IMG/VR virus record: IMGVR_UViG_3300027668_001405
Coordinates: 32,001-96,000 of that record
Origin: a virus
Strand: one strand, 5' to 3'
Length of the DNA: 64,000 nucleotides
Shown here: piece by piece, positions 45,547-53,062 of the stretch
Layout: every line of letters starts with the position of its first letter
Numbering within the stretch: the first letter of the stretch is position 1
The notes under the pieces: model-generated
Seen by the model: the letters and a program-made list of their open reading frames with translations, nothing else
Told to the model about the DNA's origin: nothing
Database searches by the model: none
Made by a program: the position numbers and the translations under genes

Positions 45547-46110
45547 ATGAGAATAATTGCAACAGGAAACCCTAACTTTGGCGTAGCAAGTGCTATCGCT
45601 GAACGATGGCCAGAAACTACATTTGTTAATAGAACAGATTGGGGCTACGATTTATGCCAAGATGGATACAAAAAGAAGCTAGCAGAAAAGACTCTTAACT
45701 ATGACGTCTTTATTAACTGTTCCGCACTATGGCAGTACCACCAAACTCTCCTACTAGATGTAGTCTATAAAAACGCTTTAAAGAACCGTAAACGACTACA
45801 TATAGTTAGTTTAGGTAGCACTACTGACCGGGCCACTAAAGGCTCTGATTGGCACTATCAGCAAGAAAAGAAAGCGTTACGTAGTACAAGCAACGCATTG
45901 GGCTTAAAAAGCATATGGGCAGGCGGTCCTAAGGTAAGTTATGTTACATTTGGAACACTTGAGAACAATGCACACAAGCACCCAGGTAGAGCTGTAATGC
46001 AACTAAGTGAAGCAGTAGATATGATTGAATATGTAATTAGTCTTCCAGATCATTTAAACCTAAATGAAATAAGCATGGACCCAATACAAACAGAGTGGCC
46101 GAATGTCTGA
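45547..46110 (+). CDS. short SDR-like oxidoreductase
   Basis: IIATG..GVASAI, DVFINCS, IVSLGS, YxxxK (YQQEK), LNEI. Confidence 0.7.
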   Translation: MRIIATGNPNFGVASAIAERWPETTFVNRTDWGYDLCQDGYKKKLAEKTLNYDVFINCSALWQYHQTLLLDVVYKNALKNRKRLHIVSLGSTTDRATKGSDWHYQQEKKALRSTSNALGLKSIWAGGPKVSYVTFGTLENNAHKHPGRAVMQLSEAVDMIEYVISLPDHLNLNEISMDPIQTEWPNV

Positions 46111-47281
46111 AGATAAAATGTGCTACATGCCTTGGCACGGAATTACGCTGAGTGCTAATGGCGATATTAAACCTTGTTGTCAATTTAGTAACAAAGGACG
46201 TAGACCTAATACTGAACACGACACTATTATGGAAAACTTTAATAGTGAACGTATGCAAGAATTACGTGGACAGTTTCTAATAGGTGAACAACCTAAAGCA
46301 TGTAACAGTTGTTGGGAGAGAGAAGACTTAGTAGGCAAGAGTAGACGCTTATGGTTCAATGAAAAGTTTATGAAAGACGACGAAGCTTTTCAACAAGGAT
46401 ACAACCCGTCAGACCTAGTAGTACCTAATCCTAAATTATATCAAGCAGATATTAACTTGTCAAACGTATGCAATTTGAAGTGTCGTATGTGTGGAAGTTG
46501 GGCCAGTAACAGTTGGTTCAAAGAAGAAATAGCACTAGCAAAAATAGACAAACGTTATGAGAAGAATGAACGTGTTGTTCCAATACAACAATACGACTTA
46601 GAAGATTTACGCAATATGCTACCTCACTTGAAAGAAGTCAAACGTATAGACTTCAAGGGTGGCGAGCCTATGATGGCAAAGCATCACAATCAATTCCTGC
46701 AATGGCTTATTGAAGAAGATATGACAGACATAGAATTGTTTTACACTACCAACGGAACAGTACAGAATCCTAAAATTATGGACTTGCTCAAACACTTCAA
46801 ACGTGTTAGTATATGTTTTAGTATAGAAGGTACTGGAGATTTATATAGATACATCAGAGGCGGTAGGTATGACATAGAAGGTTTTGAAAAATGCGTAGCA
46901 GTTTACGACAAATTAGAAAACGTACAAATTATGTTTAATGTAACATTACAGAACTATAACGTATTCAACTTGCCTGAACTACATGAGTTTTTACACGATT
47001 TAGAAGATAAATATAACAGAGTAAGTGCTAAACATAGTTTTGGTACAATCTGTAATAAACCTGCTTACCTAAGCCCAATTAATTTACCAGACGATTTACG
47101 TGATCAAGCAGTTGAGCGTTTATCATTATATGAAGATTTCGACCAATTGGTAAAGAGTATGAATAAGCGTGTATTCGACCCAGAACTATGGGAAGTGTTT
47201 ATTAACTTTACTAACGACCTAGACAAAATGCGAGGAGACAGTGTGTTAAAATCTGTGCCTGAGCTAAAGGATCATTTTTAA
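46103..47281 (+). CDS. radical SAM protein with N-terminal twitch/SPASM-like domain
   Basis: MCYMPW..PCC..CNSC; CNLKCRMC; GGEP; TTNG. Confidence 0.9.
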   Translation: MSEDKMCYMPWHGITLSANGDIKPCCQFSNKGRRPNTEHDTIMENFNSERMQELRGQFLIGEQPKACNSCWEREDLVGKSRRLWFNEKFMKDDEAFQQGYNPSDLVVPNPKLYQADINLSNVCNLKCRMCGSWASNSWFKEEIALAKIDKRYEKNERVVPIQQYDLEDLRNMLPHLKEVKRIDFKGGEPMMAKHHNQFLQWLIEEDMTDIELFYTTNGTVQNPKIMDLLKHFKRVSICFSIEGTGDLYRYIRGGRYDIEGFEKCVAVYDKLENVQIMFNVTLQNYNVFNLPELHEFLHDLEDKYNRVSAKHSFGTICNKPAYLSPINLPDDLRDQAVERLSLYEDFDQLVKSMNKRVFDPELWEVFINFTNDLDKMRGDSVLKSVPELKDHF

Positions 47282-48000
47282 TGCTAGTAGGAATTGAAGA
47301 CAACCATGCACCCAAAGACGAGTTACTTCGAGTAGAATGGAACTTAGGCAAACGTTGTAACTATAACTGTAGCTACTGTGGTAACGAACTACATAACAAG
47401 ACAAGCGACCATATGAATTGGGAAGTGTACACAGCTACAATTGATAAAATTGTTGCGGCAGCTAATGGCAAGAAGATTAAAATTAGTTTTACAGGTGGGG
47501 AACCATTTGTACATCCACAATTTATTGATATGATGAAGTATGCTAAAGAGAATGGCGTATACAGATTAAGTGTAACTACCAACGGAAGTCCACCACCAAA
47601 GATATATAAGAAAGCATTGCCGTACTTGCATTACGTAGTAATAAGCTACCACTTTGAATTTGCTTACCACGACAAAGTTATTAATAACATTGTAGGCATG
47701 TGGTCAGACATTCAAGAGTATCGCAAGCAAGATCAGTGGAAAGGTATGCACGTACACATTATGGCACTACCTGGAAAGCTAGCACAATGGCAAGAGATTA
47801 TAACAGAATTAAAAGACTGTGGAGTTGAATATACAATACGTAAAATTAGACCACGTGTTAACATGGCTCGAACAGGCTGGAACAAACCACATCAAGATGG
47901 AATGTTAGGGCAACACCCTACTCACGAAGAAACCGAGAAGTATGCAGGACAATATTATAGTCCGGAAGAAGAGGAATGGCTTACTGCCCAAAATGCTTAA
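47281..48000 (+). CDS. radical SAM core only (lacks the C-terminal SPASM domain)
   Basis: WNLGKRCNYNCSYC, FTGGEP, TTNGS; paralog of 51875..53062 but about 155 aa shorter. Confidence 0.88.
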   Translation: MLVGIEDNHAPKDELLRVEWNLGKRCNYNCSYCGNELHNKTSDHMNWEVYTATIDKIVAAANGKKIKISFTGGEPFVHPQFIDMMKYAKENGVYRLSVTTNGSPPPKIYKKALPYLHYVVISYHFEFAYHDKVINNIVGMWSDIQEYRKQDQWKGMHVHIMALPGKLAQWQEIITELKDCGVEYTIRKIRPRVNMARTGWNKPHQDGMLGQHPTHEETEKYAGQYYSPEEEEWLTAQNA

Positions 48001-48619
48001 TCAATCAGATGACAAATTGGAAATTGAACTAACTAGCAAGTGTGCATTACAATGCCCAGCTTGTGCAAGAGTGACACAATCTGATATGAAACAAGAATGG
48101 GATGCAGGACATTTAAGCAAAGAATTATTATTTAGAATATGTGACACTACAAACTTTCATAGATATCAATTTGTAGGTTGTTACGGAGATCCTATATACC
48201 ATCCTGACTTTTTGGAAATATGTAAATATTTTATGGCAGCAGGTAAGAAGATACTAGTGCATACAAATGGTAGTGCAAAGCCAGAAAAGTTTTGGAAGGA
48301 AGCAGCAGACATAGTTTGGAAAGGATGTATATTTACATTCAGCGTTGATGGACTAGAAGATACTAACCACATATATCGTAAGGGTTCTAAGTGGAAGCAA
48401 ATATTAACAGCAATGAAATATATGGCTAGTATACCTAGAGAAAACAGACCAACATTAGAATGGAAGTTTTTAGTATTCCCATACAATAAGCATCAAATAG
48501 AAGAAGCACGTACACTAGCAAACGAGCTAGGGTTTACAAAGTTTGAAGCATGGGATAGTTATAGAAATGCTAATTCTTATAACGTACCAGCAGAGGAGCT
48601 TCATAACTATGTTTCATAA
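47993..48619 (+). CDS. radical SAM protein (split pair, paralog of 5638..6297)
   Basis: CALQCPAC, GCYGDPIYHPDF, HTNGS, FSVDGLEDTN. Confidence 0.9.
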   Translation: MLNQSDDKLEIELTSKCALQCPACARVTQSDMKQEWDAGHLSKELLFRICDTTNFHRYQFVGCYGDPIYHPDFLEICKYFMAAGKKILVHTNGSAKPEKFWKEAADIVWKGCIFTFSVDGLEDTNHIYRKGSKWKQILTAMKYMASIPRENRPTLEWKFLVFPYNKHQIEEARTLANELGFTKFEAWDSYRNANSYNVPAEELHNYVS

Positions 48620-48938
48620 GAATTTAGATCCTCAGTGTAGAAAAGAGAACATGCAGGAAAAGAATAATATTCAGCTTAGTGCTACTGGTTATTTAAAACC
48701 TTGTTGTTTTTATGGTACAAGCATTAACTGGAAACAGCTAATGACATGGGCAGACAATCGAGGACTTGATATAGAGAATTTGAATATTACTAAACATAGT
48801 GTAGAGAAGATATATAACTCTCCATTATGGGCAAACATGTTGCTAGGACAAGTTACAGGCGACTTACCAACTCCATGTTGGGACCTGTGCAGAGTTAATA
48901 GCACAAATAAAATAGATGTAAAAAAACATGCAAAATAG
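48609..48938 (+). CDS. stand-alone SPASM/twitch-like protein (paralog of 6294..6617)
   Basis: PQC..LSATGYLKPCCF..PCWDLC. Confidence 0.72.
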   Translation: MFHKNLDPQCRKENMQEKNNIQLSATGYLKPCCFYGTSINWKQLMTWADNRGLDIENLNITKHSVEKIYNSPLWANMLLGQVTGDLPTPCWDLCRVNSTNKIDVKKHAK

Positions 48939-50235
48939 AGACCACGAACAACTAGCAATAAAGGAAGCTAAGGCCTGGTTACTCGAGCCTGGTAATAACT
49001 TCTGTGCTATGCCGTTTATACATATGGCAATTGAAGCCACTGGCGACATACGTCCATGTTGCATGGGCAAGCCTTTAGAAGGAATGAGTATAATAGGTAG
49101 TACAGTTGCAGAACAGTTCAGGTCTCCAATAAGAGAAGAGTTTGTAGAAAAATTTAGAAACAATTCAAAGCCAGCTGAGTGTTCAGCGTGTTGGAAAGAT
49201 CCTTTTATTAGAGCAAAGTTTTCAACCTCACCTGGAGCATTATCATCTACAATAAATTTTATGAACACTGGATCTATTGAGAAAGAACTAATATGGTTAG
49301 AGATTAAGCCGGGCAATAGATGTAATTTAAAGTGCAGGATATGTGGAGTACACAACAGTAGTGCATGGGCAAAAGATGCTAACTCATTACGCAATTTTAA
49401 ATTTGGCGAGAATGTTCCTTTTAAAGAAAGTGAAGCATTCCAAGTAACACAAGCTGGCGAGTGGATTGAAGATGAAAACTTCTGGACTCAACTGTCTGGA
49501 TTTGAGTCTATTGAGTTTTTACATTTTATGGGCGGAGAACCTTTTATGGTACCTGAACATTTTCAAATGCTAGAACACCTGGTTGCAATGCCACACTTGG
49601 ATACATCAAGAATAACGTTAGCTTACAATACAAATGGCACATATTTTCCTAGCGAAGAGAACTTAGAACTATATAAGAATTTTAAGAAAGTACATATGTC
49701 ACTAAGTATAGACGACTTTGGACCTAGATTTGAATATCAACGTAAACTAGCTGAATGGGACCAAGTAAAAGAGAACCTTAGAAAGTTTGCTTTATTAGGA
49801 GAAGATGATAAGTTCTTTGTTAATCTAGATCCTACTGTAAGTAACTATAACATATTTTACATGGCAGAGATTTGGGACGAGTTCACTAAACTTGGCTTTA
49901 GGTTTCAAAGAGGTGGATTGAATCATTTTGTATTTACTGGTCCAGATGCAATTATTAATATTCCAGTTGAGATGAAGAAAATAATAACTGATAAATATGA
50001 GTATGCACGTACAAATACAGGACTTGTTGAAGCCTATACAGTGTCAGCAATAGATTACATGAATAGTCAAAGACCAAATCCTGAAGCTTGGAGTGACTTC
50101 ATAAATAAAACTATGCACTTGGACAGTATCAGAAAAGAATCGTTTGAACAGACGTTTCCAGAGATGCATGCACTAATAAAGGGTACAGATGGTTTTAAGA
50201 GACAGATGGCTATAATGGAATCCATGAATGAATAA
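48928..50235 (+). CDS. radical SAM protein with N-terminal twitch/SPASM-like domain
   Basis: FCAMPF..PCC..CSAC; CNLKCRIC; GGEP; NTNG. Confidence 0.9.
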   Translation: MQNRDHEQLAIKEAKAWLLEPGNNFCAMPFIHMAIEATGDIRPCCMGKPLEGMSIIGSTVAEQFRSPIREEFVEKFRNNSKPAECSACWKDPFIRAKFSTSPGALSSTINFMNTGSIEKELIWLEIKPGNRCNLKCRICGVHNSSAWAKDANSLRNFKFGENVPFKESEAFQVTQAGEWIEDENFWTQLSGFESIEFLHFMGGEPFMVPEHFQMLEHLVAMPHLDTSRITLAYNTNGTYFPSEENLELYKNFKKVHMSLSIDDFGPRFEYQRKLAEWDQVKENLRKFALLGEDDKFFVNLDPTVSNYNIFYMAEIWDEFTKLGFRFQRGGLNHFVFTGPDAIINIPVEMKKIITDKYEYARTNTGLVEAYTVSAIDYMNSQRPNPEAWSDFINKTMHLDSIRKESFEQTFPEMHALIKGTDGFKRQMAIMESMNE

Positions 50236-50590
50236 TTTTAAAAACTTAATCAAGCACTATGATGATAAACCGTCTGAAGAGGATAACGCAAACAATGTTA
50301 TGGCTCGTGATGAGAATGATTTCCGTGGATGGGAATGTTGGGCAGGAGTACAAAACATTACTATTAGTAATACGGGAGATGTGTACAGAGCAATATGTAA
50401 AGTGGGTGGTAAACTTGGAAACATTTATGATGGATTTGAGATGCCCCAAGAAACAATTATATGTAATAAGCCTAGATGTATTTGTTCAGCAGATGTGCAG
50501 TTATCTAAAGCGTTACCAGAGCACGTACATAAATTAAGAATAGGCAATGAATCAAACCAATTAAACTTTGATGACATATATAGATCATGA
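50228..50590 (+). CDS. stand-alone SPASM-like domain, probable detached C-terminus of 47281..48000
   Basis: FRGWECWAG..AIC..LGNI..ICNKPRCICSAD aligns with the C-terminus of 51875..53062. Confidence 0.75.
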   Translation: MNNFKNLIKHYDDKPSEEDNANNVMARDENDFRGWECWAGVQNITISNTGDVYRAICKVGGKLGNIYDGFEMPQETIICNKPRCICSADVQLSKALPEHVHKLRIGNESNQLNFDDIYRS

Positions 50591-51885
50591 ACAATTATAA
50601 CAAATTTAAAGAACGAGCAATAGGCAAGCTACATGGGATGCCAGTAGACAAAGAAACATTTTGTCCACTACCATTTGTACATGTTAGCACAATGCCACAT
50701 GGTGAAGTTAAACTATGTTGTAGAGCTCAACCACCTAAGAACGGAACAAACCCTAACGTTAAGAATCCTGAGTTTAATCTTAAAGATTATTGGCACAGTG
50801 AATATATGAATGAGGTGCGTGATGACTTAATATTAGGTGTAAAGAATTCACAGTGTAGTAATTGCTGGAAGATGGAAGACAACGAAATTGTTAGTTTACG
50901 TATGAATAGAATTACTGACTTAATGGACAACGATACATACAAACAGAATATAAACAAGTACCTAGTAGAACGTGAAGTAGATTTTAGTATTCCACTAATT
51001 GAACTTAAACTAAGCAACGTGTGCAACTTTAAGTGTCGCATGTGTTGGCCAAAGGATAGTTCAAAGTGGGTAACAGACTGGGATAAAGTTTCTAAATTTT
51101 ACAGTGAAGGCGACCAGCGTTACATAGAAGAGATTGTAGATAGCAACGGCCTACGTAAATCTAGGGTAATGAATTTATATGAGAAGGATAAAGACTTTGT
51201 TGATCAATTACTTGAATTGATGTCAACAGTTGAAGAAATAGAATTTGCCGGAGGCGAACCATTAATGGATCCAATACATTATCGTGTATTAAACAACATA
51301 CCAAATCCTGAGAATGTTACACTAAAATACAGCACAAACCTAAGCATTATGAAGATGGGCAAAAACAACGTAATTGACTTGTGGAAGAAGTTCAAGAGCA
51401 TTAAACTTACAATTAGCATAGATGGATATAAAGATCTTAATGCTAAAATTAGACGTGGTGCTGACTGGGACCTACTAAAGCATAACATTGCACTTGTTAA
51501 AGAGCATTGTCCTAACATAGATGTAATCAAAGGATCAACATGTATTAGCGGTATGAACGCAGAAGACTTGGGCAAAACAGCTGAAGCTATTGTGTTTGAA
51601 TTAGGTATACATTGGCACACAAGTCGTGTACAATGGCCCGATTTTTTACATGCTAACGTATTAAGCCCTGTACAACTAAAACGCGGTATTGATAGCTTAC
51701 AGACGCTCTTAGACACCCTGCCGGGGCGTGATAACGTACCCAGACAGTTTATGATGGAAACACATATTAAAGGTGCAATGAGCTGGTTAGAGTCATGTAT
51801 AGAGAAAAACGAACACCACAACAAATACACAAAATTTACTGAATTTAATGCAAAAATAACGGAGATGGATACAAATGGAAAATAA
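50587..51885 (+). CDS. radical SAM protein with N-terminal twitch/SPASM-like domain
   Basis: FCPLPF..LCC..CSNC; CNFKCRMC; GGEP; STN. Confidence 0.9.
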   Translation: MNNYNKFKERAIGKLHGMPVDKETFCPLPFVHVSTMPHGEVKLCCRAQPPKNGTNPNVKNPEFNLKDYWHSEYMNEVRDDLILGVKNSQCSNCWKMEDNEIVSLRMNRITDLMDNDTYKQNINKYLVEREVDFSIPLIELKLSNVCNFKCRMCWPKDSSKWVTDWDKVSKFYSEGDQRYIEEIVDSNGLRKSRVMNLYEKDKDFVDQLLELMSTVEEIEFAGGEPLMDPIHYRVLNNIPNPENVTLKYSTNLSIMKMGKNNVIDLWKKFKSIKLTISIDGYKDLNAKIRRGADWDLLKHNIALVKEHCPNIDVIKGSTCISGMNAEDLGKTAEAIVFELGIHWHTSRVQWPDFLHANVLSPVQLKRGIDSLQTLLDTLPGRDNVPRQFMMETHIKGAMSWLESCIEKNEHHNKYTKFTEFNAKITEMDTNGK

Positions 51886-53062
51886 AGAAGACTTGAAATG
51901 GAGCGAATATGACTTTACTAAAACACCATACGATAAGTTGGTGCGTGTGGGTCAGCGTAATATTCTGTACCGCGACATGTTTACTGTTAGTTGGTTGCTT
52001 GGCCGTTTTTGCAACTATAATTGTAGCTACTGTTGGCCTTACGCTAGGAGTGGTAAAAAAGATCACAGACCTACTGAACTAAATTTAAAGACTATTGATG
52101 AGATTAAACGTCAAGCACGTGAACGTGGATTTAATAGTTTCCACTTTAGTCTAAGTGGAGGCGAACCAACTTTCCATCCAGGCTACTTAGACATGTTAAA
52201 GCATCTAAGTGATGATGCACATAACACAAACTATACAAGTGTACACATGACATCAAATTGTAGTCGTAATATGAAATGGTTTAAGACATATTGTGAATAC
52301 GCAAGTAAATTCCATCGTGCAAGTATTACAGCTAGTTTGCATACTGAACATGTTAACACACCTGAGAAGATGCAAGACTTGGCAGAGAAATTAATCATGT
52401 GTCAAGAACATGATGTACAGGTAACTATTAACATGGTTATGGTTCCTGATCTATTCCAAGAATATTATGATAATGCATTATTTTATCATAACCAAGGAAT
52501 TAACGTTACGCTAAAACCTCAATCAGATCCAACAGCAAGTAAAATTGTAGATGGTTACACACCTGAGATGTTAGCTAAGTTGCACAACGGTATGCCACAA
52601 CGTAGTTACACAGAAGCTAAAGCACAACATAAGCAGTTAGTGGTTAGACCTAAGCCTACATTTAAAATTGATAAAGACGATCATTATCGTAAGCAAACAG
52701 CGGCAGTGCCGTGGAATATGCAAGTAGAATTTAGAGACGATAAAGGTGATCCATATTACATGGACCAAGCAGAACGTTTTAATGCGTTTAACTTTAATAA
52801 GTTTAAAGGGTGGGAATGTAGTAGTGGATATCGTAGTATTATTATCCGTGAACCTGATGGAAGTGTGAAGCGTAGTTATAGCTGTCACGATCAACCTCTA
52901 GGTAACATTGAAACAGGATTTAAGTTGTTTGATGGACCTAAGGTGTGTACAACAGATTCATGTGTTAGTAGTGCAGATAGTAAAATCCCCAAACGAGCGC
53001 CGGGGACTAAGTTGCCTTTATGGCCAGGTGATAAAACATATGAGCATGGAACGTTTGACTAA
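51875..53062 (+). CDS. radical SAM protein with C-terminal SPASM-like domain
   Basis: WLLGRFCNYNCSYC, SGGEP, TSN; FKGWECSSG..SC..LGNI..CTTDSCVSSAD. Confidence 0.9.
   Translation: MENKEDLKWSEYDFTKTPYDKLVRVGQRNILYRDMFTVSWLLGRFCNYNCSYCWPYARSGKKDHRPTELNLKTIDEIKRQARERGFNSFHFSLSGGEPTFHPGYLDMLKHLSDDAHNTNYTSVHMTSNCSRNMKWFKTYCEYASKFHRASITASLHTEHVNTPEKMQDLAEKLIMCQEHDVQVTINMVMVPDLFQEYYDNALFYHNQGINVTLKPQSDPTASKIVDGYTPEMLAKLHNGMPQRSYTEAKAQHKQLVVRPKPTFKIDKDDHYRKQTAAVPWNMQVEFRDDKGDPYYMDQAERFNAFNFNKFKGWECSSGYRSIIIREPDGSVKRSYSCHDQPLGNIETGFKLFDGPKVCTTDSCVSSADSKIPKRAPGTKLPLWPGDKTYEHGTFD

Follow-up and report, generated by a model that had tools for sequence, protein, structure and literature searches.

A radical SAM gene in two pieces around a polymorphic gene slot in phage-like genomes: probable subunits of a single enzyme

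A stretch of viral DNA of 64,000 nucleotides (hereafter the window), comprising bases 32001-96000 of the 137.8-kb IMG/VR virus record IMGVR_UViG_3300027668_001405, carries two separated open reading frames (ORFs), Nh and Ch, which probably encode the two subunits of one radical S-adenosylmethionine (SAM) enzyme, made by most relatives as one continuous chain. A rough probability of 0.78 is assigned to this reading. The two polypeptides would assemble non-covalently after translation, the CxxxCxxC motif of Nh holding the SAM-cleaving [4Fe-4S] cluster, the conserved Cys of Ch supplying an auxiliary cluster and Ch adding a beta-strand to strand 1 of the core. The two ORFs and the three genes between them lie where a previous reading of the sequence alone (the sequence-only reading) had placed them. 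The two halves and the intact paralog with which they were compared are as follows.

47281-48000, + strand: Nh, 239 amino acids, radical SAM core subunit (PF04055, 56.3 bits against a cut-off of 29.5), ending in the inter-domain linker
50228-50590, + strand: Ch, 120 amino acids, small subunit with a twitch-like Cys domain (C37, C57, C79, C84 and C86)
51875-53062, + strand: Par, intact paralog with core and C-terminal Cys domain in a single chain

Origin of Nh and Ch from one gene

Nh is a member of the radical SAM superfamily (PF04055): it has both the CxxxCxxC and a GGE-type SAM motif, and its profile score exceeds the gathering cut-off. The motifs themselves, CNYNCSYC (C26, C30 and C33) and FTGGEPF, are both invariant in 12 orthologs. 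Ch matched no Pfam family at an expectation value (E) of 0.01 or below, the SPASM domain profile (PF13186) included, and no entry in PHROGs. Judged on the structural model of a fused ortholog, Ch corresponds to a Cys-rich C-terminal domain with a predicted SPASM/twitch fold. Nh (44 bits) and Par (46 bits) aligned to NF033640 over the core part only and fell below its cut-off of 170 bits. The cut-off of 200 bits for NF038073 (STM4011 family) was likewise reached neither by Ch (21.9 bits, profile positions 195-254) nor by Par (35.6 bits).

The sequence-only reading had proposed a single gene split in two from the likeness of the pieces to Par. That likeness was reproduced by BLASTP, in which Nh resembled the N-terminal core of Par (37% identity, Par residues 34-115, E 3e-16) and Ch its C-terminal domain (36% identity, Par residues 288-376, E 2e-13). 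The test named beforehand, namely the finding of fused orthologs and alignment of the junction, bore the proposal out. Viral contigs were scanned with Nh and then searched by tblastn with both halves, yielding 63 loci (type T1) in which sequences resembling Nh (28-50% identity) and Ch (41-50%) occupy one frame of 297-348 amino acids; further fused forms turned up in later scans. Single-ORF orthologs in this length range occur on about 65 viral contigs. In the family alignment the break falls inside the inter-domain linker, just past a conserved YYS-EE helix, with 0 residues lost and 0 gained.

In the tree of N-terminal parts, split cores and fused T1 proteins form a starred clade (98). Par was rejected as the nearest intact relative and is regarded as a paralog, since Par-type proteins form a separate starred clade in this tree. 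The tree of C-terminal parts has fewer columns and lower resolution; it places Ch among the T1 C-termini, with Par and a third paralog type, T2, on long branches. Identity of Ch to T1 C-termini is 41-50%, compared with 24-39% to other paralogs. Ch does not pair better with another core, an outcome that would have told against a common origin: Nh and Ch share their nearest relatives in both trees. Nh and Ch are shown to descend from one gene, with a clean break in the linker that joins the core to the C-terminal twitch-like domain.

The split forms make up one large, near-monophyletic clade in the N-part tree, with a fused protein of 368 amino acids (P0104) at its base. All Nh homologs of at least 41% identity are core-only proteins of 226-256 amino acids, apart from a few shorter fragments of 135-212, and those of 40% identity or less are mostly fused proteins of 295-379 amino acids. 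The junction of P0104 reads LNKKSTKVANFKNI, and adjacent split forms have LNKKK-stop and MTSKVTNW at the same place; these sequences fit a frameshift in the linker, which would be the simplest origin of the split, the intervening slot being filled afterwards. Two further core-only proteins, P0108 (234 amino acids) and P0119 (254 amino acids), share the linker endpoint and lie inside an otherwise fused clade. They may have been split independently at this position, or they may reflect frameshift errors. Scanning IMG/VR with an alignment of intermediate Nh sequences yielded no further split contigs, only additional fused ones.

Stand-alone Ch proteins were found as 33 clusters of 107-133 amino acids in a large protein collection; none of them varies at C37, C57, C79 or C86, and C84 shows conservation of at least 90%. 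The two ORFs are unbroken in 57 different Nh+Ch haplotypes, gathered from viral contigs and from a metagenome scan with a Ch alignment, at identities to the window down to 45% (Nh) and 56% (Ch). Pairwise ratios of nonsynonymous to synonymous divergence (dN/dS) are 0.05-0.14 for Nh and 0.04-0.10 for Ch at synonymous divergences (dS) of 0.7-1.9, values that reflect strong purifying selection on each half. Across 69 loci, the identity of Nh to the window correlates with that of Ch (r = 0.96). Wherever a locus has sufficient upstream sequence, Nh precedes Ch on the same strand, with one exception. These data show that both pieces have been kept intact, constrained, co-oriented and translationally coupled across a deep, widespread clade of marine phage-like contigs.

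The gene slot and the order of events

The genes between the halves, and those on either side, are listed below.

47993-48619, + strand: B, core-only radical SAM protein of 208 amino acids (PF04055, E 3e-10), first occupant of the slot
48609-48938 (start approximate), + strand: B', free twitch/SPASM-like ORF of about 109 amino acids in the +1 frame, overlapping the end of B (PF13186, 21.8 bits against 21.5)
48928-50235, + strand: C, full-length N-terminal-twitch radical SAM protein (NF033640, 272 bits against 170), last occupant of the slot
46103-47281, + strand: A, N-terminal-twitch radical SAM protein (NF033640, 314 bits against a cut-off of 170), conserved upstream neighbour of Nh
50587-51885, + strand: D, N-terminal-twitch radical SAM protein (NF033640, 297 bits), conserved downstream neighbour of Ch

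The order A, Nh, slot, Ch, D is common to all relatives examined. Every junction in the window is a stop/start overlap, with TAATG at A/Nh, ATGCTTAA at Nh/B and an overlap of 8 nucleotides at C/Ch. Where the halves are adjacent in relatives, they are joined by ATGA, by TAAcATG or by a few spacer bases. In one set of adjacent relatives (L099-L109 and L265-L270) the junction is purine-rich and mostly A, with 6-7 unbroken A in several, followed by ATGA, and Ch is in the -1 frame relative to Nh.

Four states of the slot were observed among viral contigs: empty, C, B+B' and B+B'+C. In the 57 haplotypes the slot was empty in 16, held B (with or without B') in 18, C in 19 and B+B'+C in 4. On a tree of concatenated Nh and Ch this distribution requires at least 11 changes, and the starred branches alone force at least six changes of the empty state. 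The empty-slot loci L217, L221 and L223 fall within a group of relatives that share 86-90% identity with the window. The junction of Nh and Ch is thereby shown to be a polymorphic gene slot in which stop/start coupling is kept in each state, and the three-gene content of the window is clearly a recent, minority state. The proposal that gene content shuffles between the halves was thus upheld in its general form. Its restriction to radical SAM cassettes was not: some slots with C or B+B' also contain an unrelated gene, as in L208 (5247-6008, 253 amino acids) and L254 (5318-6019, 233 amino acids), and the slot is not limited to radical SAM genes because genes of this type share it.

Among relatives, copies of C are 48-83% identical and copies of B 61-79%, compared with 81-93% for Nh and 74-94% for Ch. 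These identities suggest allele replacement of the slot genes, most simply by recombination in the conserved flanks; homologous recombination, acting in the conserved halves and in the genes beside them, would carry slot contents from one related phage to another. B is present in some relatives only, and its family comprises more than 100 clusters of roughly 205-245 amino acids; a pattern scan with B alone gave no matches. The overlapping two-ORF layout of B and B' recurs in loci L008 and L010, and B' is the likely partner of B. B and B' together look like a second two-piece radical SAM enzyme nested within Nh/Ch. One match in the search with B was a protein of 328 amino acids on a 2.6-Mb contig that possesses SPASM and radical SAM Pfam domains together.

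According to the sequence-only reading, insertion of the three genes had caused the split. This was not borne out, as split forms with adjacent, translationally coupled halves are frequent, are found at the base of the split clade and also fall within the group of close relatives described above. The most basal split lineages with context (L271-L274) all have adjacent halves in the order A-Nh-Ch, which favours a sequence of events in which the split came first and the slot was filled later; fused forms (L275 and L276) neighbour them. The ancestral slot state was derived from these basal lineages and from parsimony, with no rooted reconstruction. The A-Nh-Ch block region in L271-L276 lies on contigs labelled as Bdellovibrionia or Bdellovibrionales metagenome-assembled genomes, with D downstream in L272 and L273, and the contig of L272 is 916,837 bases long (917 kb), too long for a phage. 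Such contigs could be prophage, a cellular origin of the array or the result of mis-binning, and their labels may hint at the host.

A 9-bp direct repeat, CTTAATCAA, had also been pointed out at the junctions. Its two copies are present as follows.

47996-48004, + strand: left copy of CTTAATCAA, chance match
50245-50253, + strand: right copy of CTTAATCAA, chance match

The window contains these 2 copies against 1.12 expected, and at least 2 copies arose in 26 of 100 shuffles. The repeat was not found at the same junctions in relatives; it is at chance level and was rejected as an insertion scar.

Proposed assembly of the product and rival explanations

That the halves work in trans, as had been suggested from the sequence, is the best-supported reading, with dN/dS, upstream-downstream linkage and complex prediction in agreement. 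Other routes to a product were searched for in the window. No Rfam family was matched within 46500-51500 at E up to 1. Alignment of the end of Nh and the start of Ch to fused orthologs revealed no extra segments at the break that could represent intein halves. B, B' and C, the slot genes scanned for families, matched only radical SAM/SPASM families, with no homing endonuclease or recombinase among them. Contigs from two RNA libraries, of two studies, were collinear across Nh/B (47870-48017) and C/Ch/D (49718-51000) and contained no joints; being contigs and not reads, they may miss rare forms, and RNA libraries may contain DNA. Stretches without RNA-contig cover were not counted as evidence. 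No excised form was seen in DNA contigs. Since the intron, intein and endonuclease or recombinase routes found no support, assembly of two polypeptides is the remaining route.

The predicted complex of Nh with Ch scored 0.87, compared with 0.00 for the best of three controls; 58 of 80 solved complexes attained that mark, as did 2 of 110 mismatched pairs, counts that apply only roughly to Nh and Ch, for which custom alignments were supplied. Prediction runs shared at least 77% of contacts, with a predicted local distance difference test score (pLDDT) of at least 81 for the partner. The contacts with lowest predicted error join Nh residues 17-21, in core strand 1, to Ch residues 43-48. In solved enzymes the SPASM/twitch domains extend the core sheet in the same way; twitch domains bind one auxiliary [4Fe-4S] cluster and SPASM domains two. 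The AlphaFold model of a fused ortholog (pLDDT 84.6, predicted template modelling score 0.84) was matched by Foldseek to CteB, SkfB, anSME, BlsE, EpeE, viperins and BtrN over approximately 270-320 alignment columns. When solved structures were searched by profile with the alignment of fused orthologs, only generic core matches were obtained.

It is conceivable, but in the balance of evidence unlikely, that the halves no longer cooperate, Nh being a self-sufficient core-only enzyme and Ch an independent small Fe-S protein or an accessory shared with other cores. Core-only radical SAM genes are abundant in these phages, as the B family illustrates, two free twitch ORFs (B' and Ch) occur within one 3-kb stretch, and correlated divergence of Nh and Ch would be expected of any linked genes. 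Nevertheless, Nh and Ch keep their linkage, order and strand whatever occupies the slot, and Ch retains the Cys pattern of the fused domain. B is absent from 35 of the 57 haplotypes, C possesses a twitch domain of its own, and the Nh-Ch complex prediction beats its controls. Restoration of a single chain, whether by an intron or trans-splicing, split inteins, programmed DNA excision or ribosomal bypass, has precedent in phage genes in pieces that are mended by introns, split inteins or translational bypass elsewhere (PMC2677866; PMC2988022). In the relatives with an A-rich junction, low-level -1 slippage could in principle yield a fused product; as a frameshift site the A-run was dismissed for the window, where the halves are 2.2 kb apart. 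For the window itself such restoration is highly improbable given the null searches for structured RNA and intein halves, an insert composed of three constrained genes lacking a recombinase or endonuclease, halves that lie in different frames 2227 nucleotides apart, and RNA-library contigs free of joints alongside DNA contigs without an excised form, rare forms and DNA carry-over being possible in these libraries. The presence of intact Par 1.3 kb downstream would be compatible with Nh and Ch being decaying remnants of a gene killed by insertion, its function covered by Par or other paralogs. This is scarcely credible for ORFs that are intact in all 57 haplotypes at dN/dS of 0.04-0.14, with invariant Cys and SAM motifs.

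Several points weigh against cooperation of Nh with Ch or against the proposed order of events. Because Nh and Ch are halves of a split gene, the complex score may merely reflect likeness to solved single-chain SPASM/twitch structures; binding of Nh to Ch and activity of the pair are predictions, and cluster binding by Ch, which has no Pfam match, is suggested by its conserved Cys and by the fold modelled for a fused relative. The sole exception to linkage is locus L225, on a metagenome contig, in which approximately 2.5 kb (1-2530) upstream of a partial C gene and of Ch has no match to Nh or to the other query genes; either a rearrangement or a chimeric assembly could account for this. With regard to the order of events, the tree has long outgroup branches and a poorly located root, the rooting of the concatenated tree on P0104 and P0107 being unreliable. 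Several deep clades have B in the slot, and B becomes less identical in step with the flanks, so that an old insertion of B+B' followed by repeated precise losses is a possible alternative.

Genomic setting, known systems and significance

The record from which the window is taken has a CheckV completeness of approximately 40%, and the window contains phage-type replication and protease genes. The halves lie in a dense + strand array of radical SAM genes at 25168-53062, most members of which belong to NCBIfam NF033640 (N_Twi_rSAM), a family in which the twitch domain precedes the core. The array was counted to hold about 17 radical SAM genes, mainly of this N-terminal-twitch type, interleaved with genes of PNP/UDP-type phosphorylase or nucleosidase, aminotransferase-fold, Asp/Arg-hydroxylase-type and nitroreductase-fold proteins. 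DNA and protein searches of an annotated phage collection gave zero matches. A marine viral genome of T4-like type is reported to contain 12 radical SAM genes (PMC5332604). The arrangement in the window was seen again in another run, one DNA contig of which spans 47276-50344 with 0 differences, and at least 98% of sampled words were found in 15 DNA runs from 15 studies, among which the source sample may be included. An assembly artefact was ruled out on these grounds.

The closest known case is nrdA of Aeromonas phage Aeh1, which is split into nrdA-a and nrdA-b by the homing endonuclease gene mobE and whose two polypeptides reassemble (Crona et al. 2010, PMC3045599). Both are phage enzyme genes in two ORFs with a foreign gene between, and non-covalent assembly with no RNA or protein splicing is predicted for Nh/Ch as well. 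Unlike nrdA, the Nh/Ch slot has no homing endonuclease, its occupants being radical SAM or unknown genes, and the break lies at a domain linker, not at the active site, with no insertion-derived tails evident. The slot is also polymorphic (0, 1, 2 or 3 genes), and the insert is probably younger than the split. Environmental phage DNA has also yielded fractured genes that carry split inteins and an endonuclease (2009, PMC2677866); these likewise consist of two same-strand halves separated by an inserted free-standing gene, whereas the break in Nh/Ch has neither intein halves nor an endonuclease and does not concern an enzyme of DNA metabolism.

Among solved enzymes, the single-chain CteB (5why), SkfB (6efn), anSME (4k37), BlsE (7vob) and BtrN (4m7t) have the same layout of a CxxxCxxC core followed by a C-terminal Cys domain, and the fused-ortholog model matches them with Foldseek E of 1e-9 to 8e-6 and template modelling scores of 0.43-0.61. 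Identity is only 13-19%, and in the window the auxiliary domain is a separate polypeptide. By NCBIfam family names alone, the GeoRSP system is similar in pairing a radical SAM/SPASM protein (TIGR04303) with a separate SPASM-domain protein (TIGR04304); Nh and Ch are not members of these families, and gene A matches TIGR04304 weakly. Among the papers searched, none describes a split radical SAM/twitch enzyme in phages. Nh/Ch is a variant of the phage 'genes in pieces', with no mobile endonuclease, intron or intein, broken at a domain boundary, with ordinary pathway-type occupants and a polymorphic slot.

If Nh and Ch cooperate as proposed, they constitute a natural two-polypeptide form of a class of SPASM/twitch radical SAM enzymes that is normally single-chain. 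Fused, split-adjacent and split-interrupted versions all exist, and the contribution of the auxiliary-cluster domain is thereby testable by omitting one subunit. It is doubtful that the slot is a selected cassette site and not merely a tolerated junction, and that free twitch subunits such as Ch and B' are exchangeable Fe-S modules serving more than one core. A gene placed between the coupled subunits would then be expressed in step with Nh and Ch, and phages would modify a radical SAM pathway by exchanging the slot genes, with recombination taking place in the conserved halves. For the annotation of marine viral contigs, 'core-only' radical SAM proteins of approximately 240 amino acids and unannotated Cys-rich ORFs of approximately 110 amino acids may pair even when they are not adjacent. 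For phage genomics, the case shows an intragenic break that has turned into a stable site with precise borders, at which genes are gained, lost and exchanged without homing endonucleases, introns or inteins.

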